From the NCBI GenBank assembly GCA_036785375.1, contig JAWMAR010000026.1, positions 12,152,001 to 12,216,000 on the forward strand: a DNA stretch of 64,000 bases, read 5' to 3'. Position numbers and translations under genes: made by a program. Shown piece by piece: positions 291 through 63,754 of the stretch; the stretch's first letter is position 1; the number at the start of each line of letters is the position of its first letter. The notes under the pieces were generated by a model. That model was not told where the DNA came from. It saw only the letters and a list, made by a program, of their open reading frames with translations, and did not search any database. The stretch is from Leucoraja ocellata (Eukaryota).

Positions 291-1397
291 ACAAATCAGT
301 TCCATCTGTTGTGCCAACTTGGCGACAGTGAATCGACAACGTTAGATCGGCGTTAATGATGGTAGCTTGCAGAAGCCAAACGATGGAAAATAACAAGCTC
401 TGTTTCTCGCTGTGCTGATTCTACTCATTTACGTCTGCACGTAAAAGGTCCTATATTTGGCATTTATTAACGCGAACTCCTTCCGTACGAGCTGCAGCCG
501 GTGTCTAACTGGACGGGGAGTTAATTGTTGGGTTGCTTTGTCGGTTTATTACAAATCTTTAGAAAGCTTGACTTAATTCACTTAATCATGATAATCTTTA
601 ATGATGAAATAAATGTTACTGATTATTCCCGGACTTTAAATAATTTCATTTGAGATGTTGTTTACTTCTTTTTTCCCCCGTACGGTGCCACATTGGTTGA
701 ATAGACTGACGTTATGCCTGACAAAATTAGTATCAAGCGATTTCAAAAAAAAGAAAAAAGATTTCATTGAAGTCAGCTTGGAATCAGCAGCGATGAGTCC
801 CACATGTTGGAAGACCAAGGTCCTTGGGTTGCAGCAGCACATTGGTCTTATGAGGTTCCAAAGCTGTCGATGTAGAATAGAGGCATGACAGACTCTACCA
901 TCGACGTATTAAAATTGCTCCTACTCTATTTTCTTAGTGATGAGAAACCTGGACATCACACTCCAGCCACTCAAACTAACAGGAATATCATTTAAATATC
1001 TCATCGCAAAACATTTCTAACCACACCTCAGAATGAATTCCTTCCATCTCAGCATTTACCCGTTCTTAGCGATAAATCCATCTGGGAGATTGGCTTAAAA
1101 TTCGGGACCGCTAAATGAATGGGCTGCGCCAATTCATAGCGGCAATGAAAAGGAGTCTCGCAAAGTATCGTACAATGAACAAAATAACCCTCAATACCCA
1201 CGCGTCCCACAAGTGCTACTCGACCTGCTGGTTATGTCCATTGTGCTTTGTTTTATTTTGAATTACTGGTCCCTGTAATTTAAAATTGTTATTACTGGAT
1301 ATTTATCAACAGGCGATTTTTCATATTATCCTCGCGACTAGACTTTACAAATGACATAGAACTGAAAATTGTTTATTTCCCTAACACACACACTCAC

Positions 1398-1703
1398 CAA
1401 ATACGGTGATTCGGCTGCCACTTCCATTTCTGATAACCTGCTGCTGGAACTTTACTTGACAGTAATACAGGCCGGAGTCAGCTACACGCACATGTTGGAG
1501 AGTAAATGTTCCGCTTCCAGAATCTATGGTAAATTGTTTTCTATTGTCCGGTTCAAGGAAAGTCTTCATGCCGCCCCTCCACCAATTAACGCTAATATTG
1601 CCTTTCGATATTGGAAATGTGCAATACATGGTAGCATGTTCACCGCCGCCAACGTCCAAGTTGACAGGGAATTGGGACACTCGGGTCGGATAGACTTCGG
1701 TAG
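1398..1703 (-). CDS. Ig V-set exon with germline-joined J-like G strand; NCR3/NKp30-like non-rearranging VJ-type receptor (partial gene, 3' exons not seen)
   Basis: Acceptor ttgtgtcccgacAG at 1705-1704, donor GTGAGT at 1397, 306 nt, phase 1/1. Translation (A)TEVYPTRVSQFPVNLDVGGGEHATMYC...VNWW...DSGLYYC...NGSGSRITVF has VSQxP, B-strand Cys, C-strand Trp, DxGxYYC and a GxGxxxxV J-like motif. Confidence 0.9.
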
Positions 1704-1896
1704 CTGTCGGGACACAAGCAAGAACAATTGAAACAGTTGTAAACACTGGACAGAGAAAACAGGAACCAACTGTCGAAAAGCACGAAACAACTATAAACCC
1801 GCGAGGGCCTAATAGATGAACCTAATAGCTCGAAACCAGGTCCGAATTTTCGTAAAATAATACTTAGACCAGAAATGGCACACATTTTAACTATAC

Positions 1897-3815: not shown

Positions 3816-4719
3816 AATACTTACTATTAAGCCATTGTTTATTTTCCTAGGGCGTCCAATGTCATGCATTTTGCGGGTGGTGTTTTTCTTTCATGTTTGC
3901 CAAAGGTTTATCGTGGAAGGTCAAAATTTACCTGCACAAAGAATATAGTCTTTGCTGTGGAAACTCTGGACCATTAGTTTTCTGGGTAACCAGAGCGAGC
4001 ACATGGTTGAACAGTCTTGTTCTTTAGGAGGCTGGGCTGCCGGTTGACACAGTTTGAACTCCTGTGTCTTTCACTGTATCTGAGTATCCCATCGTATCCC
4101 CTCTTGAAAAAACATTGCATTCCCTTTCTAGAATGTGTGTTCCAACTGGACTTCAGTTGTGAGGTTACTGGTTTTGTATTTGCTCCTTCATCTGGATGGG
4201 AATCGCCCAGTTAAATGTAGGTCTACGAGTGGTGATACAGTTGAGGACATCATTCCACTTGGGTATGCTCCTCAATGTAGCAGCCTGATTTCCATTCCTG
4301 AAAGATGGTAATGAAACAATTGGGCTCATGTGATAATCTGTTAGACTCGTGGTGACCCAAGTCACTTTCTCTTGTTTTTATTCTGAATTTAGTTAATTAT
4401 TTGTTAATTATCCTCAGAATGCAAATCACAGACAGTCTCACCTGGTCCAGGAACAACACTGGGATTGTCAAACGGGCCCATCAGCGACTGCACTACCTGA
4501 GGAAGCCAATAGGCATCATCTGCTCTATCCTCGTTAGACTCTCTCGTTAATCATGAAGTCGTAGGGTCATGCCGCACAGGAACAGGATGTTACAGCCCAC
4601 CACGTCCATGTAGATATGGACCATATTATTTTCCGTTGAATTGTGAAAGGAACTGAACATTGGACAATCACCAGCAAACATCCCGACTTGGACTTTATGG
4701 TGAAGGAAGGCCATTGGTG

Positions 4720-4840
4720 AGGATGGTAAACCTCTGCCTCAACTGAAAGGACTGTCGTGGTCCTTGGACAGAGCCGAGGGAGGGGGTTTAGGGACAGGTA
4801 TTCCAACTCCTGCATTTGCAGGGGAAAGTACCTGGGTGGT
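4720..4840 (-). mobile_element. Penelope-like element ORF fragment
   Basis: aaacctctgcctcaactgaaaggactgtcg matches the PLE fragment at 42510-42540. Confidence 0.55.
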
Positions 4841-6174
4841 TTGAGCCTACCTACCGTGTTCCCCTGACTAGTTTCACTGTCCTCCTGATTAAATTTTACT
4901 GATTGTATGCCTCGTTCACCTTCCCCTTTGATCTCTCGTTTTCACACCTTACCTTTCCATAAAAAGCAGGCAGCTGGGTCAAAGGAAATGGGAAGACAGT
5001 TTTTCCAGAGCTACATGAATCCCGGCGCATCAGCTGAAACAGTTTTAAGATTATAACTGAGAGGGGCTCCCCCATTACTAGTTAGTCATTTGTTTGCTCT
5101 GGGTGTCATGTCTCTTTATTTGTATTCTACATATTCATGGAACTGTGATTTCTCTATGAATCAATACACTATTCTGTTAAACTGTAATGTTTGTAGAAGG
5201 CTGATGTCTTACATCTAAGCTGTACGGCTGACAAAGCACATCATTAATAAACCCTGGCTTATAGCTATGCATCTCAACTCTTCGATAACTTGGATGCTGC
5301 AACTCCAATTCAGTGTTATTCATTGCTGTACAACTGAGCTCATGCAATGATCCCCATTCCCAGTCATCTTGGCAGTCAGTGAATTTCAAAACAGGTCAAT
5401 AACTGGTATCCAATTCCACGAGGATTATCTGCAGTTCAGAATCTCTTATGTCGCTTCCATCAAATGCCTTGTAAGATGTCCATAAATTGTAGTGTTTTAA
5501 TCTTAGTTTCTAGGTAGTTTTGAAAGGGACAAAAATGAGGTTGGGATTTATACACCGATAAATAAGTTTTGATAGAATTTAGTGTTTGTGACTTGTTCAT
5601 TTCTGCATTTCATTTTGCTTACAGAAATGAAATCGTAAAGCAAAATGCAGTGCATTACTAATGCAAAAAAAAGTGTAATTTGAATTGCTTTTTATTCATT
5701 ATTCAAATTTATAGGGGTAAACCAAATATAGTTGAAACCAAGAGATATTTTCCTAAAATTGCAGTCACCAAAGTGATAATAGATCACACACAGATGTGAC
5801 TTATACATCTGATTTTAAGATACAGTAAAAAAATGTTGTCCCTGAATGTATTTTTTTCCTATTATAGTTAACTTTTCAAATAACTATATGAATCTGATTA
5901 GGAGGCATGTCCATACACATTCTGGTCAGATGGAAGCAAGCTAGATCATCACACCCTGTCAGACTGTCAACAAAATAGTTTAAAAATCTCAATTAAATTT
6001 CATATGACCTGCCCAGTTGTGGCTCTGAGACAGACCGCTGTAAATTCACTTATTATAAAGAAATTACTGCCTCTTCAACCTGCATGCTAATCTCAATTGG
6101 TGTGTGAGTTTCATCATATTTGTGAAACATTGCGCTTCAGTCTATGCAAGTGCATAACTTCCTGAGAGAGACAG

Positions 6175-10974: not shown

Positions 10975-11310
10975 ATAGCGTGAGCCCTTCGGCCCAACTA
11001 GCCCATACCGGCCAACATGTCCCAGCTACACTAGTCCCACCTGCCTGCGTTTTGGCCCATATCCCTCTAAACCTGTCCTATCCATGTACCTGCTAATTGT
11101 TTCTTAAACGTTACGATAGTCCCCTGCCTCATCCACTCTTCTGGGCAGCTGATGGTTATGTGGACGAGCTGCCAGAGGAAGTAGTAGAGGCAAATACAAT
11201 GACAACATTTAAAGGATATTTGGACAGGTCCATGGATTGAAAAGGTTTAAAGGGATATGGGTCAAATGTTGTCAAGAGAATTAGCTCAGGGAGGCACTTT
11301 GGTCAGCATG
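10975..11310. mobile_element. Two CR1-like 3' fragments in opposite orientations
   Basis: cccttcggcccaac...(minus) followed by gacgagctgccagaggaagtagtagaggca...(plus). Confidence 0.6.
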
Positions 11311-11311
11311 T

Positions 11312-11440
11312 ATGAGGAAGAGTCTCGACCCAAAATGTCACCCATTCCTTCTATCCAGAGATGCTGCCTGCCCTGCTGAGTTACTCCAGCATTTTGTGTC
11401 TATCTTCGGTAAAGCAGCATCTGCAGTTCCTTCCTACACA
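11312..11440 (+). mobile_element. PLE terminal repeat, single long arm
   Basis: Degenerate hammerhead core followed by cacccattcc...cagcatctgcagttccttcctacaca. Confidence 0.75.
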
Positions 11441-12550: not shown

Positions 12551-13242
12551 AAGATACAAATTCCTTTCCATACACCAGGTGGGAAACAATCTTTACATCA
12601 GTTAATCCGTGATCAAGACTTCCCATCGTAGGCTGATTGCCCCCGGCCCCAGGCAGTGACTGACCTGCAACATTCAGTGATGGATTACCCCCCAACCTCT
12701 GCTCCATCCTGGTCAAGGGAATCTTAGGAAAGTTCCTCCCACTTACAGCAGCTGAAGTGAACGGATTCATCCCAACTTCCGGCACTTTTTCTTCACCTTC
12801 CTTGGACTTTGCCCCATTCTAGAATCCCATAATACAGTACATACAAACAGGTAATATTAATTCTGGATTCTGCAATTGGAATACAGTGATTTTTAAAACA
12901 GGCAATAAAACAAAAATACTGGCATTTGGTCAATGACTCTCTTGTTGTGGGACGTATTATTAATTTCCCACTTTTTTCCCCATCTACATGGGCTAAAGTT
13001 GGCCTCACCACCAGCTACTGCTCCAGCTCTTCCCACGGTGACTCCACTGACCCAACGTAACCAAGGGCAATAACCGTTCACCTGGTGCCATCACACAGGA
13101 GCCATGAGCCAGTGTTGTCAGTTCAAAGGTTCCCCGCACCTCTCAGCTGAGGGGCTGCCTGGCCAGTCTGCTCCTGGCATCCTGCCTCGCCGGACAGCAT
13201 TGCCGACCGAGCTCACTTTCCCACATGTTCAATCCCTTCAAG

Positions 13243-13471
13243 GATAGACACAAAATGCTGGAGTAATTCAGCGAGACAAGCAGCATCTCCAGAGAGAAGG
13301 AACGGGTGACATGTCGGTACGAGACCCTTCTTCAGACAGTCTGAAGATGGGCCTCGACCTGAAAAGTCACCCAATCCATCTCTCTAGGGATGCTGCCTGT
13401 CACGTTGAGTTACTCCAGCATTTTGTGCCTATCTTCGGTTTAAACCAGCATCCGAAGTTCCTTCCTACACA
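13243..13471. mobile_element. PLE terminal palindrome with two head-to-head hammerhead cores
   Basis: gagacccttcttcagac-a-gtctgaagatgggcctc centre near 13338; ~95-nt inverted arms, right arm extended. Confidence 0.8.
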
Positions 13472-16696: not shown

Positions 16697-16854
16697 TTTA
16701 TTACCTTTGGCTTGCACTCACTCAAAAGTGCCCTGTGCAAACCCGAGCTGAGATCTGTGCATAAACTGGGCTGAAATGCTAAGTGAGAAGGGTTGGAGCC
16801 CCCGGCTGTTCATGAACGGCCTACAGTGGAGCTCGCTTTGACATGTCATCTGGA

Positions 16855-16946
16855 GATAGACACAAACTGCTGGAGTAACTCAATGGGGCAGGCAGTATCT
16901 CTGGAGAGAAGGAATGGGCAAAGTTTCGGGACGAGACCCTTCTTCC
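16855..16946 (-). mobile_element. PLE terminal repeat, single arm
   Basis: gatagacacaaactgctggagtaactc...gtttcgggacgagacccttcttc. Confidence 0.7.
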
Positions 16947-18795: not shown

Positions 18796-19103
18796 AGTTT
18801 AGTTTAATTTAGTTTAGAGATACAGCGCGGAAACAGCCCCTTTGACCTACTGAGTCCTTGCTGACCAGCGATCCCCGCACACTAACACTAACCTATACAC
18901 ACTAAGGACAATTCACAATTTTACCCAAGACAATTAACCAACAAGCCTGTATGCCTTTGGAGTGTGGGAGGACCACACTGGAACATCCGGAGTAAACCCA
19001 CGCTGGTCATGGAGAAAATGTACAAACTTCATACAGACAGCACCAGGATCGAACCTGGGTCTCTGACGTTGTAAGGCAGCAACTCTACCGCTGCGCCACT
19101 GTT
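18796..19103 (-). mobile_element. V-SINE
   Basis: (TTTAG)n tail then agagatacagcgcggaaacag...gcagcaactctaccgctgcgccac. Confidence 0.85.
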
Positions 19104-19358
19104 CCCCTTTAAGTACTAACACAATGTGTGAAGGCATTTCAGGTAATAGAAATTCACAAATCACCACCAAAAAATTTGAGATACGGAATAAAGTTTCAAT
19201 TTATCAGAGGAAAAAACGGAAATAAACACAAAATATGGAAGAAACACCACATTTTTTGTCAAGGGTTTGAGTTAGAGAAAATCAAGATGTTGGCGTTTTT
19301 TGAGGAACCCACCCCCTTTGTTATGGGGAATATAAAGTGGTATTAGCATTTAGGTACG

Positions 19359-19940: not shown

Positions 19941-19990
19941 GCATTCAGACTCACAATTTTCCAACAGGATGCTATACTGCAATCAGAGGA

Positions 19991-20087
19991 GATAAACACA
20001 AAATGCTGGAGTAACTCAGTGGGACAGGCAGAATCTCTGGAGTGAAGGAATGGGTGACATTTCGGGTCGAGAATTCCTTCCTACACA
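19991..20087. mobile_element. PLE terminal repeat, internally deleted
   Basis: gataaacacaaaatgctggagtaactcag...tttcgggtcgaga joined to ttccttcctacaca. Confidence 0.7.
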
Positions 20088-22620: not shown

Positions 22621-22978
22621 GGAGGGAGCGATAGATCAGCCACGATTGAATGGCAGAGTAGACTTGATGGGCCGAATGGCCTAATTCTACTGCTATCTCA
22701 TGATCTTATGAACAATGTCTGATGCTGTGCAGAGGTCAAACATACCAGAGTGGGAACATGTAGAAACAAAGAACTGCAGATGCTGGTTTATCCTCGAGGT
22801 ATGCCTACCAGAGTCGGACCTGAACCGAAGAGCGATCTGGTAATTTTAGGCATAGGTTTCTTTCCAAATACCTGCAAATGGGTTGATGCAACAGGAAGAT
22901 GAGAAGTGAGTCTTAATCTCTTTGCAAATTTACCTTCGGTTACAGCCTCACTCTAATGCCTGACAAGTGAAAGTCTCA

Positions 22979-23432
22979 GGTACACAAAAATGCTGGAGAA
23001 ACTCAGCGGGTGCAGCAGCATCTATGGAGCGAAGGGAATAGGCGACGTTTCGATCCAAAACCCTTCTTCAGACTGATGAGGGGGGAGAAGGAAGGAAAAA
23101 GGGAGGAGGAGGAGCCTGAGGGCGGGGGGGATGGGAGGAGACAGCTCGAGGGTTAAGGAAGGGGAGGAGACAGCAAGGGCTAGCAAAATTGGGAGAATTC
23201 AATGTTCATGCCATCAGGACGCAAGCAACCCAGGCGGAATATGAGGTGCTGTTCCTCCAATTTCCGGTGTTGCTCACTCTGGCAATGGAGGAGACCCAGG
23301 ACAGAGAGGTCGGATTGGGAATGGGAGGGGGAGTTGAAGTGCTGAGCCACCGGGAGGTCAGGTAGGTTATTCCGGACTGAGCGGAGGTGTTCGGCGAAAC
23401 GATCGCCCAACCTCCGCTTAGTCTCCCCGATG
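22979..23432 (-). mobile_element. Penelope-like element 3' end: GIY-YIG endonuclease C-terminus, 3' UTR and hammerhead-bearing pLTR
   Basis: IGETKRRLGDRFAEHLRSVRNNLPDLPVAQHFNSPSHS...RKLEEQHLIFRLGCLRPDGMNIEFS* (stop at 23180). Hammerhead-like core at 23071-23044. Confidence 0.9.
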
Positions 23433-23496
23433 TTAGTCTCCCCGATGACAGAAGTGAAAGTCTCAAACAGGATGGCTCTGTAGGAATGAAACTGAA

Positions 23497-23660
23497 GAGA
23501 CACACAAAATGCTGGAGTAACTCAGCAGGACAGGCAGCATCTCTGGAGAAAAGGAATAGGTGATGTTTGGGGTCGAGACACCTTCTTCAGAAACAGTCCC
23601 TGTTTGTTCTCTCCAGAGATGCTGCCTGACCCGCTAGGTTACTCCAGCTTTTTGTGGCTC
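23497..23660. mobile_element. PLE terminal palindrome
   Basis: Inverted arms gctggagtaactcagc...cagcatctctggaga / tctccagagatgctgcc...gttactccagc. Confidence 0.75.
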
Positions 23661-24414
23661 TCTATGATAGGATTGCTCTGCTGTGAGCTGACCTCGACTT
23701 GATGGGCTGAATGACCTGCTTCGGTTTGAATCAGTCATCAACATGTAAATGATAAGGGGGGTCCAGTGGACACTTACGCTGCACAGTACAATCCGGTAAG
23801 TTACAGTTGCCAGGGGTTGATTTTGTAATAGGCAATTGAATGAAACCACTGAATGAAATGCGAGTGGATTAGTACTGGGAGGTAGGAATGCACAGGGAAA
23901 TATCTTAGTGGCCGCTGAACTGAACCACAATATAGATTTATAGATCTGTCAGCTTGCTGAATTCATCCAGCAAAACAAACAGTTAAAAAAAGAAGCTAGT
24001 TCTGAAAGGTCTGGTTTTTGTTGCAGGTTGAACTCCTTGAGCAGGGTCAGAGGTTGGGGTCAGGGTCACATAGCCTGGCCCAGGACCCAGGGGATTAGGG
24101 TGGGCAACTTGCCATCAAAGATTGCCGTCAGTGACAGTGCCTTGACCCCCTTCAATGAACAATTAGCGGAGGTTTCAGCTTACTCCGGATTGAAAGTTGA
24201 TGTAGAGTGTGAAAGGGCAGAGGTGGGGAGTGGGCTGCAGCTGGGCGTCACAGGGCACCAGTTGAACTCAGCACCCTGTCCTCCAGATACTGCCGAGACG
24301 TGGCGAGTGGGTGAGGAGCAGGGGAGGGGTAGTGGACCACAGGAGAAGAAACGCCGGAGCAGAGGACAGAGTTGTATCGATTGTATCGAGAATGGCTTGA
24401 TTGTAATCACGTAT

Positions 24415-25170: not shown

Positions 25171-25995
25171 TTTAATCAGAACAGGACGAGGGTTGGAACT
25201 CACCATAAACTAAGGCAACAGAGCAGAGGGACCGACAACAAATGGAGAGGGTAACTAGGATGAGAAGAAAGATTTCTCACATGGTCGGACAAGCGGGATA
25301 CCATTTGTGATGCTAATGTGGTCCCTTGTTCTGTGGTGACAGAGACACAAGGCAGACGGAACTCTGGGTAAGGTGGGCTTGAGGTCGGGAGGTTGACGAA
25401 CATTGAAAATAAATGAGTTTGGTGGTTTATAAGGAGGGAGGAGCTAAGGCTTGAGTTTGGAAAAGGGAGATTCGGAGGAGGGAGTAACCCATAATGGCAC
25501 AAACCACGTAGAGATGAGGATATGATTTTAGTTAGATGGTCAGGGGGCACGGAATCAATGATTGTGATCTGAGTGACATTAATCATCACAAACTCCATGC
25601 AGCTGCAGGAGATATGGAAGCAAAGAATCAGGTCAGCAGGGTGTGGTGTAAACCAGGGGCCAGCTTTACAGTCCAGGAGCTGTGGCAGGGGCAGCTTTGT
25701 AGCAGCGGTGATGAACATGGTTCAGCCTCAGCAGATGGTAAAATAGTGACACAGACTGTGTGCAATTCTAGAATTACTAGAGATTCGAGAAATCAATATT
25801 CTTGTTGCTGGATTGTAAGCTGCCCAAGCAAAATATTCCATCGGTGTCTAGATTTCAATTTAGCGCAGCTATACCAGTTAGACCAGAAAAAAATAAATGA
25901 TTATTTCCTTTGTCATATCCATTTAGTGTTATGTTGGAGAAACATAACTAGGGGTCGTGGGATTGTGGAGGACAGCAGCTCACCGAATGGATGAA

Positions 25996-26237
25996 GATAG
26001 ACACAAAATGCGAGAGTAACTCAGTGGGACAGGCAGCATCGCTGGAGAAAAGGAATGGGTGACGTTTTGGGTCGAGACCCTTCTTCAGATAAGAGTGAAG
26101 AAGGGTCTTAAGAAAAGTCTCGGCCCGAAACATCACCCATTTCTTCTCTCCAGAGATGCTGCCTGCTCCGCCGAGTGACCCCAGCAGTTTGTGTCTATTT
26201 TTGGTTTAAACCAGCATCTGCAGTTCCTTCTTACACC
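25996..26237. mobile_element. PLE terminal palindrome
   Basis: Minus-strand core CTGAAGAAGGGTCTCGACCCAAAACGTC at 26088-26061, second partial core on plus, extended right arm. Confidence 0.8.
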
Positions 26238-27219
26238 AAATGGATGAATGCGGCTGAGGGCCTTCAGTTTTGTCATCGTCAGGTGGCTCAATGGTGCCAC
26301 CTGCAGGCAGCACAGGTGCAAGGATTTGAAGAGTTTTACGGAGTACCAATTTATTTGCAGTTATCAATACATAATCTGGTAAAACTGCATAATTACACAG
26401 GTCCAAAGTACAGAAGGAAGGCTTCTCTCCCACTATATAGACTCATTGACAGAGAAGTAGATGATAAATACATTAGATTCTCTGAATGCTGAGAGCCTGA
26501 GATTTATTGTGAGCAGCCCCACAAGGGATCAATACATAATGCTTAATTTCATTGAGGCAAAGGCTTCTATTTTTATTAGTTTGCGAGACTGACAAGGAAA
26601 GGTAATTTGCAAATGTGCACCTGCTGGATAATAAATTGTTATTTTACTCTGAAATCAATCGCAATTAACAGAAGCGGGAAGATCTCGTTGCATCGAGCAT
26701 AATTGCTTTGAAATGTTCACAAAAATGCAGCAAATTAAAAGTATGAAGCTTCAAGCTGGCAGCTGAGGAAGGCCAGATGTCAGCCGCCGACACTCCCTGG
26801 CCTGGTGGATAGCAAGGGAGATGGTGGCTGCTTCACTGACTGATGCTGGAAGTATTGGCGTTTATCACTGCCCTAAGCTATGCCCAAGCTGCGCAAACAA
26901 ACAACAACATCACTCAGCGTCATCTCGCACAACATGGCTACCATGTGAAGGCGCTTTGTGCTCTCACTCTGGGCAGTATGGGCATCAGCCTGCAGTCAGC
27001 TGGCACCCAGTGGGTAAGCTTCCAAAATGGCACCCAACCCAGGCGACTATTTGCAAGCCACAGAAGCAGATCTACAATCACATATTACAATCGCTCCACA
27101 CTCTTAAATCTCTACTCCCACAGCACCATTTCTTACTTTATTCCCTTGTCATGTATCTATACACTGTAACGGCTCGATTGTAATTATATATTGTCTATCT
27201 GCTGACTGGATAGCATGCG

Positions 27220-27520
27220 AGGGCCAGTGCAAATTGGAGGAACAGCATCTCATATTTCGCTTGGGTAGTTTACACCCAGCACTGTGAACATTGACTTCTC
27301 TTATTTTAGATAGCCCTTGCTTTCTCATTCCTTTCCCTACCCCTTCCCAGTTCTCCCATAAGTCCTACTGCCTCTGCCTACCTCCTTTCTTTTTCTGCCC
27401 CTCCCCACCCCCCTCCCCGACATCAGTCTGAAGAAGGGTCTCGACCCGAAACGTCGCCTATTCCTTCTCTCCATGGATGCTGCCTCACTCGCTGAGTTTC
27501 TCCAGCATTTCGTGTCAACC
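27220..27520 (+). mobile_element. Penelope-like element 3' end (GIY-YIG tail plus pLTR)
   Basis: aaattggaggaacagcatctcatatttcgcttggg (KLEEQHLIFRLG), followed by the hammerhead core and pLTR. Confidence 0.85.
27428..27455 (+). ncRNA. Minimal type-I hammerhead ribozyme core within the PLE pLTR
   Basis: CUGAAGA-A-GGGUC UC GACCC-GAAA-C-GUC: conserved CUGANGA and GAAA boxes, stem II hairpin, palindromic ACGU stem III, GUC cleavage triplet. Stem I is only ~2 bp locally. Confidence 0.65.
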
Positions 27521-27521
27521 A

Positions 27522-28020
27522 TAGGAAAGATGTGGAGGCTTTGGAGAGGGCACCGAGGAGATTTGCCGGAATGTTGCCGGGATTAGAGGGTTTCAGCTAT
27601 GGGGAAGATTGGGATTGTTTTCTCTGCAATGCCAGAGGTTGAGGGGAGACTTGACAGAAGTTTGTATAATTATGAGAGGCATAGATAGGGTAGACAGTCA
27701 GAACCATTTTTCCCCAGGATGGAAAGGTCCAATACTAGAGGGGATAGAGCTATGTGGTGAGAGGGGGAAATGGAGATGTGTGGGGCAAGTTGTTTTACAC
27801 AGAGAATGGTGGGGGCCTGGAAACGCATTGCTAGGGATAATGGTGGAGGTAGATACGATAATGCCATTTATGAGACTTATGGTTAGGCACATGGAAGTGC
27901 AGCAAATAGAGGGATATGGATCATGTACAGGCAGATTAGATCAGTTTAACCTGGCATCATATTCGGCACAAATATTGTGGGCTGAAGGGCTTGTTCCTGT
28001 GCTGTACTATGTTCTATGTT
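27522..28020 (+). mobile_element. CR1-like LINE 3' end
   Basis: LGLFSLQCQRLRGDLTEVCIIMRGIDRVDSQ; ends gggctgaagggcttgttcctgtgctgtactatgttctatg. Confidence 0.85.
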
Positions 28021-32639: not shown

Positions 32640-32955
32640 GGCCATTCACTTGGACTTTTTCCCAATGTTGTTAATGGTGTTCACCGTTCACAACATGGCC
32701 TCCCCTACATGGGGGAAACTAAAGGCAGACTGGATGATCGCTTTGAGGAGCACTTGCACTCAATGTCCATCAACGACCCTGATATTCCCATTATCTACCA
32801 TTGACCGTCCCACTCTCACTTGAACCCGTCTGCCTGTGGCCTCCTGCACTGTTACAATTAAGACCCTTGACATCTCAAAGAACACCACCTCATAATTCAT
32901 CTGGGCATGCTTCAGTTTGCAGGATTGAATACCAAGTTCTGCAATTCAGATAGCT
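32640..32955 (+). mobile_element. Old PLE GIY-YIG remnant
   Basis: GLPYMGETKGRLDDRFEEHL (YIG motif region); later aaagaacaccacctcataattcatctggg. Confidence 0.7.
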
Positions 32956-33954
32956 TTTCTTCTGTGTGTATCAGGACTGGATTTTCTGTGCCTGCCAATC
33001 TCTTCTTTTCATCTTTCCTTAGTATATTCTGGCCTCGTGGGCATGTCCCAGTTAACCAGACTACACAGCATTAACACATTGCACCAGATAAAAGAGCCTC
33101 ACTGTCCATGCAACACTCACATCATTTCACCATACGACAGATATTCCCTCTGCTCCACCCATTGATTTCTCAATTACACTGCAGGGGCATTGACCTGAAA
33201 CGTTAACTCTTTGTATTTTTCACAGATGCTACCTGCTGTGAGACCCCCCCCCATCCCCTCCCGCCCCCCCGCAATGTTCATTTATTTTTAGGGCCAAATA
33301 AACAAAGCCTTTCATCCTAGGAAGATCCTTTCACAATTCTGCTGCAGTGTCTCTACACTCCAGAGGTTTAACTTCTGGAGAACAATCTTTTACAATAAAA
33401 TTGCTTTCTAAAAACTACCTTGGAAAGGCCAGATCATCGGTCATGGGTCTGGATGCCTTTTGCTAAGTTCCCTTTGTGTCTCAGAGTCTGGAGCTCTGAT
33501 GTGGTTGGAGGCTGGTAGCTGGCTCCGCAATGGTATATTTATGCTGACTTCAATCAGCTTTCATGTTTCAAAACATCTGAGCTCAAAGCAATCACAAACA
33601 TTATTGAACATACAGTAGATCAGTACAATGCAGGGGAACAGGCCCTTCAGCCTTCCATGTCTACACCAACCATGATGCCAATGTAAACAACCCTTCTGTC
33701 TTTGTCCGTACCCTGCCTGTTCATGTGCTTTAATGCTTCTTCACATGCTGTCAAACCTGCTTCTACCATCTCCTCTTGCAACATACCCCAAATATCTACC
33801 ACTCTGTACAAAACAATTTGCCTCACAAAACTCCTTTAACATTTCTGTCTCTCATCCTAAACCAGGATATATATATATATATGGCAGCATGGTGGGTTAG
33901 GTGCCATCATTTTGTAAGGGAGTTTCGAAATCAGTAAGTGTTCCATACGTCTTA

Positions 33955-38769: not shown

Positions 38770-39330
38770 CAGAGTTTAACGGTAGTGAAATGGATAACAA
38801 TGACTGGAGTGTGACGGGAAGGGAGTGTGTGCAAACATTGTGTTTCAGTGTCGTTTAAGAGGCTTTTAGATCGGCACATGAATATGTGAGCAGAAGAGAT
38901 TCATAACTTCATAAGTTATGGGAGCAGAATTAGGCCATTTGGCCCATCAAATCTACTCTGCAATTCAATCATAGCCGGTCTATCTTTCCCTCTCAATGCA
39001 TTCTCCAGCCTTCTCCCCATAACCCCTGACGTCCGTACTAGTTAAGAATCTATCAATCCCTGCTGTAAAAAATATCTATTGACATCCCCCACAGCCTTCA
39101 CAGAATCTGTGGAATCTTTGGCAATGAATTCCACAGATTCACCTCCCTCTGACTGTAGAAATTCCTCCTCATCTCCTTTCTAAAGGTATGTCTATTTATT
39201 AAGAGGTTATGGCCTCTGGTCCTAGATGTTTAAACTAAATAGTTTAATTTAGTATCATGTTCGTCAGAGACAGCATTGCTGAAGGGCCTGTTCCTGTGCT
39301 GAATTGTTCTATGTTTTATGTTCCATAAAG
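38770..39330. mobile_element. Nested CR1-like 3' ends (minus copy ~38900-39225 inside a plus copy)
   Basis: ggagcagaattaggccatttggccc (minus tail) interrupts gtgagcagaagagatt...agtttaatttagtatcatgttc. Confidence 0.65.
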
Positions 39331-39435
39331 GTTAACCTGCTAAACCTTTATGGAACATAAAATATAGAACAGTTGAGCGTAGGAAAGGGCCCTTCAGCAA
39401 TGCTGTCTCTACTGAACATTATGCTAAATTAAACT
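39241..39435. repeat. Fold-back inverted duplication (~92-nt arms, ~9-nt loop)
   Basis: agagacagcattgctgaagggcc...atgttccataaaggtt / aacctttatggaacat...ggcccttcagcaatgctgtctct. Confidence 0.85.
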
Positions 39436-39890: not shown

Positions 39891-39943
39891 TCATGACATT
39901 GACATCCTCAAGACTAAAAACAAGACATTAAGTGAGTTTGAAG

Positions 39944-40131
39944 GTACACAGAAATGCTGGAGAAACTCAGCGGGTGCAGCAGCATCTATGGAGCGAAGGA
40001 AATAGGCAACGTTTCGGCCGGAAACGTTGCCTATTTCCTTCGCTCCATAGATGCTGCTGCACCCGCTGAGTTTCTCCAGCTTTTTTGTGTACTTTCCATT
40101 TTCCAGCATCTGCAGTTCCTTCTTAAACACA
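39944..40131. mobile_element. Near-perfect PLE terminal palindrome (39944-40092) plus ~38-nt tail
   Basis: gtacacagaaatgctggagaaactc...caacgtttc-ggccg-gaaacgttg...gagtttctccagcttttttgtgtac. Confidence 0.9.
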
Positions 40132-40970: not shown

Positions 40971-41113
40971 CACAGGTAGCTGTGGGTCTGGGAACAGGAT
41001 TATGGTGTGAGCTGGGAGTGGGGTCTGTAATGCAGACAGAACACGGTGGGAATGGAAAGGGCAGTGCCGATGGAATCTGACACTTGCAGTGCCTCACACA
41101 ATCAAACTGAAAA

Positions 41114-41266
41114 TAGATACAAAATGCTGGAGTAATATCTCTGCAGAGAAGGAATGGGTGACGTTTCAGGTCGAGACCCTTCTTCAGAAGTCTGTCCCAT
41201 CCCGCTGAGTTACGCCAGCGTTTTGTGTCTATCTTTGGTTTAAACCATCATTTGCAGTTCCTTCCA
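41114..41266. mobile_element. PLE terminal palindrome (deleted) with an intact minus-strand hammerhead core at 41187-41160
   Basis: CTGAAGAAGGGTCTCGACCTGAAACGTC on the minus strand. Confidence 0.75.
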
Positions 41267-41892: not shown

Positions 41893-42570
41893 TGCAGGAA
41901 GGAACTGTAGATGCTGGTTTACACAAAAGATAGACACAAAATGCGAGAGTGACTCAGCGGGTCAGGCAGCATCTCTGGAGAAAAGGAATAGGTGATGTTT
42001 CAGGTCGAGGCCTTTCTTCAGACTGAGAATCAGGGGGGAGGAAAACTAGAGGTGTGAAAAGGTATAGAATAAATAAAAGACAGCACTGATGGCCAAAGAG
42101 CCCACAATGGTCCATTGTTGGCTGTGGAAGAGGTGATAGCGAAGGGATATGAACAGTGAAACTAGCAGGACAACTGGGGTGGTGGAGGGATGGAGCGAGA
42201 GGGAATATAAGGGTTACTTGAAATTAGAGGTCAATATTCGTGCTGCTGGGTTGTAAGCTGCCCAAGTGAAATATGATGTGCTGTTCCTCCACATTGCATG
42301 TGGCCTCACTCTGACAGTGGAGGAGGCCCAGGATCTCGATGGGAATGGGAATGGGAGTTAAAATGTTTGGGGAACGCGTAGGCCGAGGCGGATTGAGCAG
42401 AAGTATTCAGTGAAACGATCGCCGAGTCTGCGCTCAGTCTCGCTGATATATAGAAGTCCAAACCGAGAATAATAGATACAGTAGACGAGGTTGGAGGAGG
42501 TGCAAGTGAACCTCTGCCTCACCTGAAAGGACTGTCGGGGCCCCTAGTTTGAGTCGAGGGAGGAGGGAGT
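41893..42570 (-). mobile_element. Penelope-like element: GIY-YIG domain, 3' UTR and long pLTR
   Basis: Minus translation GPRQSFQVRQRFTCTSSNLVYCIYYSRFGLLYISETERRLGDRF (VY...YI motifs); hammerhead-like core ~42021-41994. Confidence 0.85.
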
Positions 42571-42799
42571 CGCTAAGATATGTGTGTTGTTCCATTTATT
42601 GGCCGCTGTAAATTTCCCCTGTTGTGTAGATGAGTGGGAGAATCTGGGGGGGGGGGGGGGGGGGGGGGGGAGTTGGTGAGAATGTGGGGGCGATCAAACA
42701 AAATGTTAACTGTGTAGCCTTAGAGCTAATGTGGGGTTGAGAGACAGTGTGGAGCTGATGGGCAAAAGGACTTGTTTCTGTGTTTTGTTTCTCTATAAG

Positions 42800-50385: not shown

Positions 50386-51036
50386 GATTTGGCTTTGTCA
50401 ATGGTTTGGTTTGATGTTGCTTGATGTGGTTTGCAGAACTGCATTCATTATGATCGATCACTTCACCCCATTACCCTAAGGCCAGTGGTAACAATTGAAA
50501 GATTTTGTCTGCTGGACAGACCTGGAGGTAGAGCTGTAATGAAAGGGTAGGGAAGTGTAGGTGGAATCTGAATTTCTCAACTGAATGTTAATTTCAAAGA
50601 CCGCATCATCTGATGTGCAGGTTAATTTTATCTTTGCCACAGGGGTCGCAAGACATGTTGGATTAGTCCTCGTGGCCCGTTGGGGTTCAGTGCTTAGGTT
50701 AGTGATTGTAATCTCATACTTCAATTTACTCAGTTCCATTACATATCCATTTAACTGATAGAATTTCTTGTCGCTAAACAGGAATTAATTATGAAACGTT
50801 GCCGGTTTGCAAGGTAGATATTGATGCCCAAAGCCACTAGGCCACACAGATCATCCAGAAAGAAGGTCACCTATTGTAACTCCAGGATAAAAACATTATG
50901 TGGATGATTAAAACTTCTAAGCTTCAGTAATTGCTGGGTTTTCTCCTCCACTGACCCCTTCCTCGAAGATTGTTCTATACAAGTGTCCTGACATCAAATT
51001 ACCAAGTGACGTTTACTGTTTGCAACTGGAGCCCTG

Positions 51037-56682: not shown

Positions 56683-57093
56683 AAGCAACTTTTAAATTTC
56701 TCTTAAAAAAGACAAAATGTGCTTGAGTAGCTCAGAGGGTCAGGCAGCATCTCTGCAGAACATAGATATGTGTTATTTTGGGTCAGAACTTCTTTTTACA
56801 AGTTCTCTGCCTTACCAGCATTTTGTCTGCATATTCTGTGTGCAGTGTGGCCTGCATATCACCCTGCAGTCTCCTGCAGTCCACCAGAGTACATGCAACC
56901 ATAGTGGTGTTGTAGTCTAACAAGGCTTTAACTCAACATTTCAACCAGGAAGGGGAGACGGTTCTCCGACCTGAGATAAATAGAAGATGCCGTTGTCCAA
57001 CACAAACTTTTGTTATTGACAAAGATACAACTCAGAAGTGACTGCAAGTGCCGCATCAACAATAGGAGAAGGAAGTATTCATGAAATCACTTT

Positions 57094-57307
57094 TACACAA
57101 AATGCTGGAGTAACTCAGCGGGACAGGCCGCATCTCTGGAGAGAAGGAATGTGTAATGCTTCTTCAGTTGAGACCCTTCTTCCAACTGAAGAAGGGTCTC
57201 GACCCGAAACTTCACCCATTCCTTCTAGCTAGAGATGCTGCCTGTCCTGCTCTGTTACTCCATAATTTTGTGTCTATCTTCTGTTTAAACCAGTATCTGC
57301 AGTTCTT
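57094..57307. mobile_element. PLE terminal palindrome with hammerhead core at 57186-57213
   Basis: CTGAAGAAGGGTCTCGACCCGAAACTTC; inverted arms, right arm extended. Confidence 0.8.
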
Positions 57308-57645
57308 ATAAATAACCTTTGCATTCAGCATGAGATAACCTTAAAAAGGACAACACGGACACCAAACTCAAGTACTGCAGATGCTGGGCATTGAAATGCT
57401 CCTTCCATTCTGCTGAATATTTCCAGCATTTTCTGTTTTTATTTCAATATTCCAAATCCTAGTTATCAATGGAAGAATGAATACTAATGGACAGATCATC
57501 ATGCAGCATAACCATCTGTTTTTATATTTGCAATTGTAGTTACCCCTTAAATTTCACTGGCAGCAGAAGTGAAGACAGTCAGATGGCATGAAGAGCAAAC
57601 AGTGGTCTGGGATGGGTTAAATTAACAGCAAAACATTCCTTTTCC

Positions 57646-57832
57646 TGAAGGTACACAAAAAGCTGGAGAAACTCAGCGGGTGCAACAGCATCTATGGAGC
57701 GAAGGAAATAGGCAACGTTTCGGCCCGAAACGTTGCCTATTTCCTTCGCTCCATCGATGCTGCTGCACCCGCTGAGTTTCTCCAGCTTTTTTGTGTACCT
57801 TCGATTTTCCAGCATCTGCAGTTCATTCTTGA
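57646..57832. mobile_element. Near-perfect PLE terminal palindrome, same subfamily and centre as 39944
   Basis: gaaggtacacaaaaaagctgg...caacgtttcg-gcc-cgaaacgttg...ccagcttttttgtgtaccttc plus tail. Confidence 0.9.
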
Positions 57833-61543: not shown

Positions 61544-61676
61544 GACTGAAGAAGGTTCTTGACCCGAAACGTCACCCATTCCTTCTTTCCAGAGATGCTG
61601 CCTGTTCCGCTGAGTTACTCCAGCTTTTTGTCTGTATATTCAATTTAAACCAGCATCTGCAGGTCCTTCTTACCCA
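61544..61676 (+). mobile_element. PLE terminal repeat starting at the hammerhead core (61546-61573)
   Basis: CTGAAGAAGGTTCTTGACCCGAAACGTC plus long arm; flanked by a cataatcaaagact direct repeat. Confidence 0.8.
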
Positions 61677-62359: not shown

Positions 62360-62760
62360 TGGGCAGCACGGTGACACAGCTGGGAGAGCTGCTGCCCCAC
62401 AGCTTACATGACCTGAGCTCAAACCTGACCTTAGGTGCCCTCTGTGTGGAGAAGGGTCTCGACCCGAAGCGTCACCCATTCCTTCTCTCCATAGATGCTG
62501 CCACACCCGCTGAGTTACCCCAGCTTTTTGTGTCTACCTCCAGTTTATTCCCACATCCCAATGACATGCTAGGAAGTTAATGGGCTACTGTAAGGTCCAC
62601 ACACAAAATGCTGGAGTAACTCATCGGGACAGGCAGCACCCCCCGAGAGAAAGAATGGCCTGCAGCCTGTCCCACTGGGTTACCCCAGCATTTTGTGTAT
62701 ATCTTCAGTTTAAACTAGCATTGCAGTTCCTTCCGACACATACTGTAAGGTACATCTTGA
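62360..62760 (+). mobile_element. Old V-SINE carrying two PLE-terminus insertions (62450-62540, 62599-62741)
   Basis: SINE head gggcagcacggtgacacagc interrupted by agaagggtctcgacccgaagcgtc... and acacaaaatgctggagtaac.... Confidence 0.6.
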
Positions 62761-63061: not shown

Positions 63062-63158
63062 GAGAAGAAGGGTCTCAACCTGAAACATCACCCATTCCTT
63101 CTCTCCAGAGAAGCTGCCTGTCCCGCCGAGCTACTCCAACATTTTGTGTCTATCTTTG
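63062..63158 (+). mobile_element. PLE terminal repeat, single arm
   Basis: gaagaagggtctcaacctgaaacatcacccattcc...ttttgtgtctatc. Confidence 0.7.
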
Positions 63159-63754
63159 ATTGCATTCATGTTTGGATGTTTTATTTGAAAGTTTTCACTG
63201 TGTTTTGGTACAAGTGAGAATAATAAAACAATAAATAAATGTAAGATGAGCCATTGAAAGAGTTACATGGGGCCTCAATACAAGTTGGGAACCAAGATTG
63301 GCAATTATTCAATCACTCGCTTTAGGGGCTACTAACTCCAAAAGTGCCTTCTGTTATTGCAATTGTAATTTAATTACAGCAATGAGTGTCTATCAGGAGC
63401 TCTTGCCTCTTGGCAACATATGTACCTACCAGCACTGCAACACTTCTGCATTCACAGAGCCTTTCCTGTTGGTGTGTTCAATGGTTAATAAGGCCCCAAG
63501 GATGGTTGGTAGGAAGTATTTTATGGAAATAATTAACGTGGGTGTGCATTATTGGGACCAGTGATCTACAGATTATGGTGAAGCCGTGTCACAAGATTGC
63601 GCAAAATGAAGAATATTATTTATATCAGCTTCACACAACAATGTACCGATCATTTTAACATCTTAATGCAGTGCTGGGCTCAGTGCTGTACTCTCATGTT
63701 GGAGTCAGGAGATCACAGTTTCAAGGCCTTGTTCAGAAACAGAGCATACAGCCA

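Follow-up and report, generated by a model that had tools for sequence, protein, structure and literature searches.

Minimal hammerhead motifs in Penelope-like element remnants of the skate Leucoraja ocellata and the insertion geometry of their short, decaying copies

A stretch of 64,000 nucleotides from Leucoraja ocellata (GCA_036785375.1, contig JAWMAR010000026.1, positions 12,152,001 to 12,216,000; in the following called the window) carries at 27428–27455 a sequence that resembles the core of a hammerhead ribozyme, and related sequences recur throughout it. In a preliminary description the motif was assigned to the terminus of a Penelope-like element (PLE), and the genome was proposed to be seeded with self-cleaving RNAs by a non-autonomous retroelement. 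The locus thus raises two questions, namely whether the motif is a PLE hammerhead and how its many look-alikes arose.

The exact 28-mer is present on the plus strand at 27428–27455, and seven matches with up to three mismatches were found in the window compared with none in 100 shuffled sequences, which confirms the core as described. Read as RNA, it runs C3-U4-G5-A6-A7-G8-A9, an extra A, stem II, G12-A13-A14, ACGU and C17, so that CUGANGA, GAAA and UH are all present. Stem I consists of 2 bp (27426–27427 with 27456–27457), stem II of 4 bp with a 4-nt loop (27436–27447), and stem III is the loop-less palindrome ACGU. The motif has an additional nucleotide separating positions 9 and 10.1, G10.1-C11.1 and palindromic 15.2-16.2 without a loop. 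These core features bear out the proposed dimer-type minimal PLE hammerhead with a palindromic stem III, carried by a PLE terminus, and the extra A after A9 agrees with the min-HHR in the accessible text of PMC4209133. The doubt about monomer activity is likewise justified, and stem I is 2 bp long, as had been cautioned. A model-based scan gave no such agreement: a search with Rfam, hammerhead models included, recognised no hammerhead anywhere in the window at E≤10. The focal copy consists of the following parts.

27219–27313, plus strand: C-terminal PLE GIY-YIG endonuclease remnant with one frameshift, ending at a stop codon (tblastn with P0004/P0006, match 27219–27337)
27314–27424, plus strand: pyrimidine-rich spacer of the pseudo-LTR (pLTR), from the end of the ORF to the ribozyme, aligning with the equivalent region of the copy at 23073
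27426–27457, plus strand: minimal type-I hammerhead, predicted cut after 27455 (from the sequence and the accessible part of PMC4209133)
27456–27519, plus strand: downstream pLTR to the proximal 3' end, no tail; 27461–27471 is predicted to bury the core

A decayed LINE-like frame, presumably CR1-like, starts right at the 3' end of this copy (27520–27640, plus strand).

The host element can be approached through the endonuclease. The stop codon at 27311–27313 lies 114 nt upstream of C3, close to the distance of about 115 nt given before, and four arms of the family (27426, 23073, 42023 and 33183) lie 108–244 nt downstream of endonuclease remnants. Besides the focal copy, three such long copies were annotated.

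22974–23473, minus strand: GIY-YIG remnant, spacer and core-intact hammerhead with 3/4 stem II pairs
41893–42597, minus strand: linker and GIY-YIG remnant, spacer, hammerhead with G16.2 changed, and pLTR with 3' tail
32664–33238, plus strand: old copy with GIY-YIG remnant and a decayed hammerhead arm 244 nt behind

Leucoraja erinacea has a protein that is 93% identical to the remnant at 23180–23473, and other skate, ray and shark proteins are 61–74% identical to it. Pfam gave no match in the window's own endonuclease remnant; the remnants of the window are 65% identical to protein P0004, which has RVT_1 and GIY-YIG domains. A CX4CxxC linker between the reverse transcriptase (RT) and GIY-YIG is found in the close relatives P0002–P0004, P0006 and P0009; in the window it is seen only in decayed form (4707–4871), and such a linker does not separate Neptune from Nematis. 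A CX2-5CxxC linker marks both clades in the accessible part of 10.1101/2021.04.23.441226. The host is likely a Neptune-clade PLE, an assignment that rests on the linker of the relatives and not on a tree. Within the 64 kb there is no intact element or RT of the skate family, and the viral contigs searched for the family gave no match. One shark protein reads through its pLTR and ends in a peptide matching the translated motif at 9 of 13 residues, which hints at retention of the motif across elasmobranchs.

With a profile built from six window copies, 43 arms were detected, of which 39 reached E<1e-3 and the four weaker ones were left out of all counts; the same profile found none in the reversed window. 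By manual grouping these 39 arms form about 29 loci, ten of them two-armed, which corresponds to one locus per 2.2 kb and 5.6% of the window. All ten further sites named in the preliminary description hold a family arm: C3 lies at 23071, 26088, 41187 and 42021 on the minus strand and at 57186, 61546, 13341, 197 and 62446 on the plus strand, and the copy near 63062 begins at 63064 without C3-U4. The description of the copies as mostly devoid of ORFs was accurate, but their spacing was overestimated at 3–6 kb. In public sequencing runs, 74,000–168,000 family contigs were counted per large run, which shows abundance, contig depth being no copy number.

Short copies, here called stumps, measure 100–130 bp. 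Their 3' ends are bimodal, with 15 of 39 arms ending at model positions 93–103, 16 at 120–130, three in between and five that are shorter and old. The two ends thus lie about 30–35 nt apart, with or without a tail, and loose ends in public contigs were found at 41927 and 41892, 35 nt apart. Two-armed loci are arranged head to head with the tail on one arm. Seven of the 20 loci that were tested are flanked by target duplications of 11–16 bp (P≤0.0033, with 300 random pairs as reference); an eighth locus has a weak duplication, a ninth match is an internal repeat, and at 12 of the 20, the focal copy included, no duplication was found. An inverted 5' copy, a one-sided tail of 30–40 bp and a target duplication are features of EN+ PLE insertions, and all are present here. 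The main insertions are listed below, with the strand where one applies.

87–314: head-to-head pair, target duplication not found
11310–11439, plus strand: single tailed arm from the 5' edge, core decayed
13239–13470: head-to-head pair, both arms from the ribozyme 5' edge, one tail, 15-bp target duplication
16848–16945, minus strand: single arm from G5, no tail
19990–20087: inverted arm from stem II and last part of the tail, 14-bp target duplication
23484–23669: head-to-head pair with dissimilar arms, weak 12-bp duplication (P=0.013)
25992–26236: head-to-head pair, 15-bp target duplication, arms 19% apart, left arm nearer to long copy 42023
39939–40127: young head-to-head pair joined in the stem II/GAAAC quasi-palindrome, target duplication of about 16 bp
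41105–41266: two-armed insertion; minus arm from U2.1, core intact, G10.1-U11.1, internal 17-nt deletion
57092–57306: head-to-head pair from the ribozyme 5' edge, target duplication not found
57643–57830: young head-to-head pair joined in the stem II/GAAAC quasi-palindrome, 14-bp target duplication
61546–61673, plus strand: single tailed arm from C3 with an intact core and without stem I, abutting a 14-bp target duplication
62444–62548, plus strand: single arm from the 5' edge, core decayed
62592–62738: two-armed insertion without ribozyme, 11-bp target duplication
63064–63161, plus strand: single arm from G5, no tail

The two young palindromes have their joints at 40004–40030 and 57710–57737, within a 15-nt quasi-palindrome that stem II and GAAAC form together; each of their four arms has U at position 17 where the long relative 23073 has C. 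Rfam miRNA matches at 39960 and 57667 are these palindromic stumps and not miRNAs. At 25992–26236 and 23484–23669, the two arms of an insertion differ by 19%, and either arm is more similar to copies at other loci; a two-base variant present in both the arm at 26089 and long copy 42023 is missing from the partner of that arm. Such discordant arms hint at two template RNAs per insertion or at later conversion.

Several other features were noted in the window. An immunoglobulin V-set exon (1381–1821, minus strand; PF07686, E=4e-9) ends in a J-like motif and possibly belongs to an immune receptor gene, in which case the first stumps may be intronic or flanking. ARAGORN reported a tRNA-like element at 19034–19107 (minus strand), likely the head of a tRNA-derived SINE and unrelated to the stumps. 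The long inverted repeat at 39241–39435 comes from a different repeat family, and its Rfam MIR856 match is false. An open frame at 50476–50784 (minus strand) with a weak DUF7497 match (E=9e-4, below the cut-off) is possibly a host exon.

Whether these copies could still cleave was assessed from the state of their cores and from predicted folds. Only 14 of the 39 arms cover C3 to N17 in the alignment, and all core bases are kept in four (23073, 27426, 41188 and 61546). Two of these, 41188 and 61546, begin at or just before C3 and have partly or wholly lost stem I, which leaves two core-intact arms with the 2-bp stem. An intact core together with 4/4 stem II pairs including G10.1-C11.1 and a 2-bp stem I is found in the focal copy only. 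In the main subfamily, represented by 16 arms, private changes outside CpGs affect 8 of 161 core positions (5.0%) and 63 of 923 flanking positions (6.8%; P=0.49). A better-kept core (3/122 versus 75/920, P=0.026) had appeared in a count that omitted C3/U4 and kept lineage-shared sites; the difference vanished once C3/U4 were included and lineage-shared sites were handled, at small sample size. In X20 contigs, the core CpGs C11.1-G12 and C15.2-G16.2 are changed in 9.9–15.7% of depth and the loop CpG in 6.7–7.8%. The core decays neutrally in stumps.

Folding predictions, which take no account of protein or tertiary contacts, point in the same direction. In native context the predicted probability of stem II is 0.00 in five of five folds because the purine core pairs with a pyrimidine run 6–16 nt past the cut, or elsewhere; among six further arms, four place the core strand onto the pyrimidine run and two keep stem II. 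The double-hammerhead dimer is predicted at −6.7 kcal/mol and competing dimers at −19.7 and −25.0. For seven palindromic loci, read-through RNA is predicted to fold into hairpins of about 90 bp (−102 to −149 kcal/mol) that swallow the motif. A longer distal stem I suspected by eye did not appear in the folds. The stumps are thus predicted to be catalytically silent. With four intact cores among 39, of which two have stem I, with neutral decay and an unfavourable predicted fold, the idea of a genome seeded with self-cleaving motifs was not supported. The complementarity between the purine core and the pyrimidine run behind the cut site (27430–27471), a run kept in both subfamilies, was also observed in its own right, and this pairing might possibly represent a built-in off fold.

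A different picture emerged for the elements from which such copies derive. Metagenome contigs were scanned with the core pattern, giving at least 126 matches; 121 loci were fetched, and 124 usable matches fell into 33 clusters. The search pattern itself prescribed the core, so that core conservation in these matches is circular; counts were confined to stem I, position 17 and the endonuclease link. Among the matches listed, Watson-Crick pairing is seen at stem I pairs 1–3 in 22, 29 and 24 of the 33 clusters compared with 12.7, 11.3 and 10.7 after shuffling, and none of 5000 shuffles reached the observed values; the clusters come from other organisms and unrelated PLE ends and are not phylogenetically independent. 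Position 17 is H in 29 of 33 clusters, and a same-strand core lies 73–156 nt downstream in 26 of 29 loci with an endonuclease match (both among the matches listed). A blastn search of two pLTRs against the 121 loci gave no match at E≤1e-3. Within the skate family, common stem variants retain pairing: 27444 A>G turns a stem II pair into U-G and 27456 G>A a stem I pair into U-A, and only U-A or U-G occurs at pair 1. Since stem I covaries and family variants keep pairing, the structure is under selection in master elements. The ribozyme is selected there, likely as a dimer- or protein-assisted switch, and not in stumps. Seven metagenome loci (L020, L023, L025, L044, L058, L072 and L112) have two extra stem III bases and a 4-bp stem I in shifted register, similar to D. 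virilis. Metagenome contigs of unrelated PLE families (L004, L080, L093 and L111) likewise contain arms in inverted orientation whose joint lies immediately upstream of the ribozyme.

The most distinctive property of the stumps is their 5' edge. Counting from C3 as 0, with the cut after 27 and with several 5' starts assigned by eye, 16 of 39 arms start at −5 to +3, ten in stem II or GAAA, four are long (33183 included) and nine start further down. The cut site is included in 30 of the 39, and no arm begins 2 nt or less away from it. Starts about 30 nt upstream of the cut, like the many head-to-head pairs with target duplications, are absent from the preliminary description. Of 20 arms that reach +3, 16 stop within −5 to +3, compared with 6% expected from a truncation rate of 0.007 per nt further downstream (P about 1e-16); with one arm per locus the figure is 13 of 17 (P 3e-13). 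In all four public runs, which consist of assembled contigs and cannot show RNA ends, the top loose ends with an unrelated A/T-rich flank fall on 27425 and 27426 (−3 and −2), and about as many, at 27422 and 27423, continue as pyrimidine-rich pLTR of other subfamilies (both among the best 24 of 536 rows, with capped counts). From these similar numbers, long copies are commoner genome-wide than in the window. Inversion joints lie at the equivalent base 42024 in two public runs. The sharp edge is not general across PLE families: among the metagenome matches listed, 115 copies were examined, of which 67 have close partners; 8 of these 67 end no more than 10 nt from C3, and 37 run on for more than 70 nt. 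As a cleaved 3' product would give ends at +28, where none occur, the template of the stumps was likely uncleaved RNA.

The edge itself lies in a short motif.

27423–27429, plus strand: TCAGTCT, fitting the initiator consensus and also a 3' splice-acceptor context, with the family edge on 27425–27426

The initiator consensus is YYANWYY, the A being 27425 here, and the edge A lies within TCAGTCT in all three young long copies. The match is weak, with 10.7 occurrences per kb by chance and four bases fixed by the ribozyme. A DPE-like reading of AAACGTC against RGACGTGY fitted at 5/8 and was dropped. PLEs have internal TATA-less promoters according to the accessible part of PMC2377424. The preferred reading, tentative and at less than even chances, is that the edge at −3 marks the start of the RNA. 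The cDNA would stop at −3/−2 by running off the RNA 5' end, and if it did, transcription of the element would begin 3 nt upstream of the hammerhead. Run-off products of exactly this kind would result if priming took place inside the 5' pLTR of an mRNA. The full proposal, in which transcription starts 3 nt before the hammerhead and the RT primes within the first 100–130 nt of the mRNA and runs off the cap, is put forward with similar reserve.

A somewhat unlikely alternative is that RT or second-strand synthesis fails on the 3' pLTR of full-length RNA, at the pyrimidine tract or at a core/anti-core hairpin. A C/U-rich tract does lie directly upstream in all three young long copies, the predicted hairpin covers the core, and 5' truncation is usual in PLEs (accessible parts of 10.1101/2021.04.23.441226 and 10.64898/2026.07.22.740005). 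Failure of this kind is difficult to reconcile with an edge that is sharp to 1–2 nt at the A/G of TCAGT and that lies at the exit of the hairpin and not at its entry, and no ends fall inside the tract among the best 24 of 536 rows.

The edge could also be a 3' splice junction (pyrimidine tract, CAG|T), with stumps copied from spliced RNA. Three young long copies out of three have the acceptor-like context, three arms have the T that follows AG as their very first base, and in D. virilis an intron ends at helix I (accessible text of PMC4209133). Yet a common upstream exon is missing, the loose letters at 27425/27426 agreeing at only 0.31–0.36; resolved junctions put the arm within a few bases of the target duplication or of the other arm, and no exon joint was found among the best 15 rows per contig comparison (441 and 8 further rows). 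Splicing is therefore regarded as improbable.

As improbable is the origin suggested in the preliminary description, a ribozyme-bearing non-autonomous retroelement of SINE or retrozyme type with a short master of its own that seeds self-cleaving RNAs. Most copies are ORF-less and share one 5' edge, the young palindromes at 39939 and 57643 are nearly equal in size and centre, and non-LTR retrozymes are reported to derive from pLTRs in the accessible part of 10.64898/2026.07.22.740005. But the short arms share lineages with endonuclease-bearing copies at 2–8%: over model positions 31–92, long copy 23073 is 2–3% from the four arms of the 39939 and 57643 palindromes, and long copy 42023 is nearest to short arm 26089 (8%). 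Junctions differ among loci, the window holds no tandem units, same-strand spacings being irregular (217–13152 nt), and the stumps have no tRNA-like head, as judged from this one window. The few intact cores with their neutral decay, and the predicted hairpins of palindromic loci, also argue against such a master. Given these relationships, the varied junctions and the lack of tandem arrays, the claim found no support. Since tandem units and a tRNA-like head are lacking, the stumps also fall outside the definition of a retrozyme.

Highly improbable, finally, is copying from RNA that was cleaved and religated to circles after the model of Cervera and de la Peña (accessible text of PMC4209133), which would restore the cut site and let copies span it. 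This model does not account for a stop 3 nt ahead of C3 and predicts head-to-tail repeats where the window has none, and the double-hammerhead fold is disfavoured among predicted dimers.

Taken together, the motif is very probably the min-HHR of a PLE pLTR, and its look-alikes are decaying stumps, predicted to be silent and likely made by the element's own RT-endonuclease from uncleaved RNA. The GIY-YIG link, two 3' ends, head-to-head pairs, target duplications, the 5' edge and neutral core decay are the observations behind this explanation. By analogy with the Anolis element PAc, the enzyme would nick one or both target strands, reverse transcription would prime internally at two sites to give arms with and without a tail, and use of both nicks would produce mirror pairs.

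If the explanation including run-off is true, an autonomous retrotransposon would mass-produce SINE-sized, ribozyme-headed stumps, about 5% of the window, without a non-autonomous master. The stump edge would then map a PLE promoter to the base, the 2-bp stem I would be explained by only 3 nt lying upstream, and uncleaved RNA would be shown as the in vivo template. This leads to a prediction precise to one base, namely that the A of TCAGT would carry a capped end.

In comparison with known systems, the ribozyme, its PLE host and the mass of solo copies are already in print, and as a ribozyme finding the locus is ordinary. According to the accessible text of PMC4209133, min-HHRs have no activity as monomers and low activity as dimers, and their thousands of solo copies are probably truncated PLEs. 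The skate motif shares with them the core, the additional nucleotide separating 9 from 10.1, G10.1-C11.1, a palindromic 15.2-16.2 that lacks a loop, the pLTR site, many solo copies and opposite-strand pairs. Helix II and helix I measure 4 and 2 bp in skate compared with 7–8 and 4–5 bp in S. mansoni; in D. virilis helix I is also 2 bp. The accessible text of that paper contains no cartilaginous fish and no mapping of solo-copy starts, either of which its supplements may hold.

Non-LTR retrozymes (accessible parts of PMC7229834 and 10.64898/2026.07.22.740005) likewise have a type-I hammerhead, no ORF and pLTR ancestry. They form head-to-tail tandem repeats of 150–450 bp with circular RNA, whereas the skate copies are dispersed, single or head to head, of the minimal type and mostly decayed.

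With EN+ PLE insertions (accessible parts of PMC3846280 and 10.1101/2021.04.23.441226) the stumps share the inverted truncated pLTR, the one-sided tail of 30–40 bp, junction palindromes and solo pLTRs. Target duplications are 11–16 bp in skate and 8–10 bp in Adineta, the solo pLTRs of these studies have no duplication and were ascribed to recombination, and stumps are the main product in skate, unlike in the EN+ PLEs described there. The stumps are the known PLE insertion layout in its smallest form. For the sharp 5' edge no description was found in the texts and search listings consulted, subscription papers, Repbase reports and several supplements being out of reach; the accessible text on PAc does not describe such an edge of short copies, and supplementary figures S1–S2 of that paper may cover it.

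PAc, a Poseidon of Anolis carolinensis (Frangieh et al. 2024, PMC11167929), is described in the accessible text as having two internal RT starts that bound the tail; both target strands are nicked and extended, the RNA template is uncleaved, and the ribozyme needs protein. PAc belongs to the Poseidon clade and the skate element, known from genomic sequence alone, likely to Neptune. The RT starts, two-strand nicking and uncleaved template of PAc have their counterparts in the skate copies, namely two 3' ends, mirror pairs and cut sites that are left intact. The geometry of the stumps bears on how PLEs transpose and on what the hammerhead does. Its two 3' ends, its mirror pairs and a 5' edge placed without regard to the cut site amount to a natural insertion library, and it fits in vivo what one study had found in vitro.
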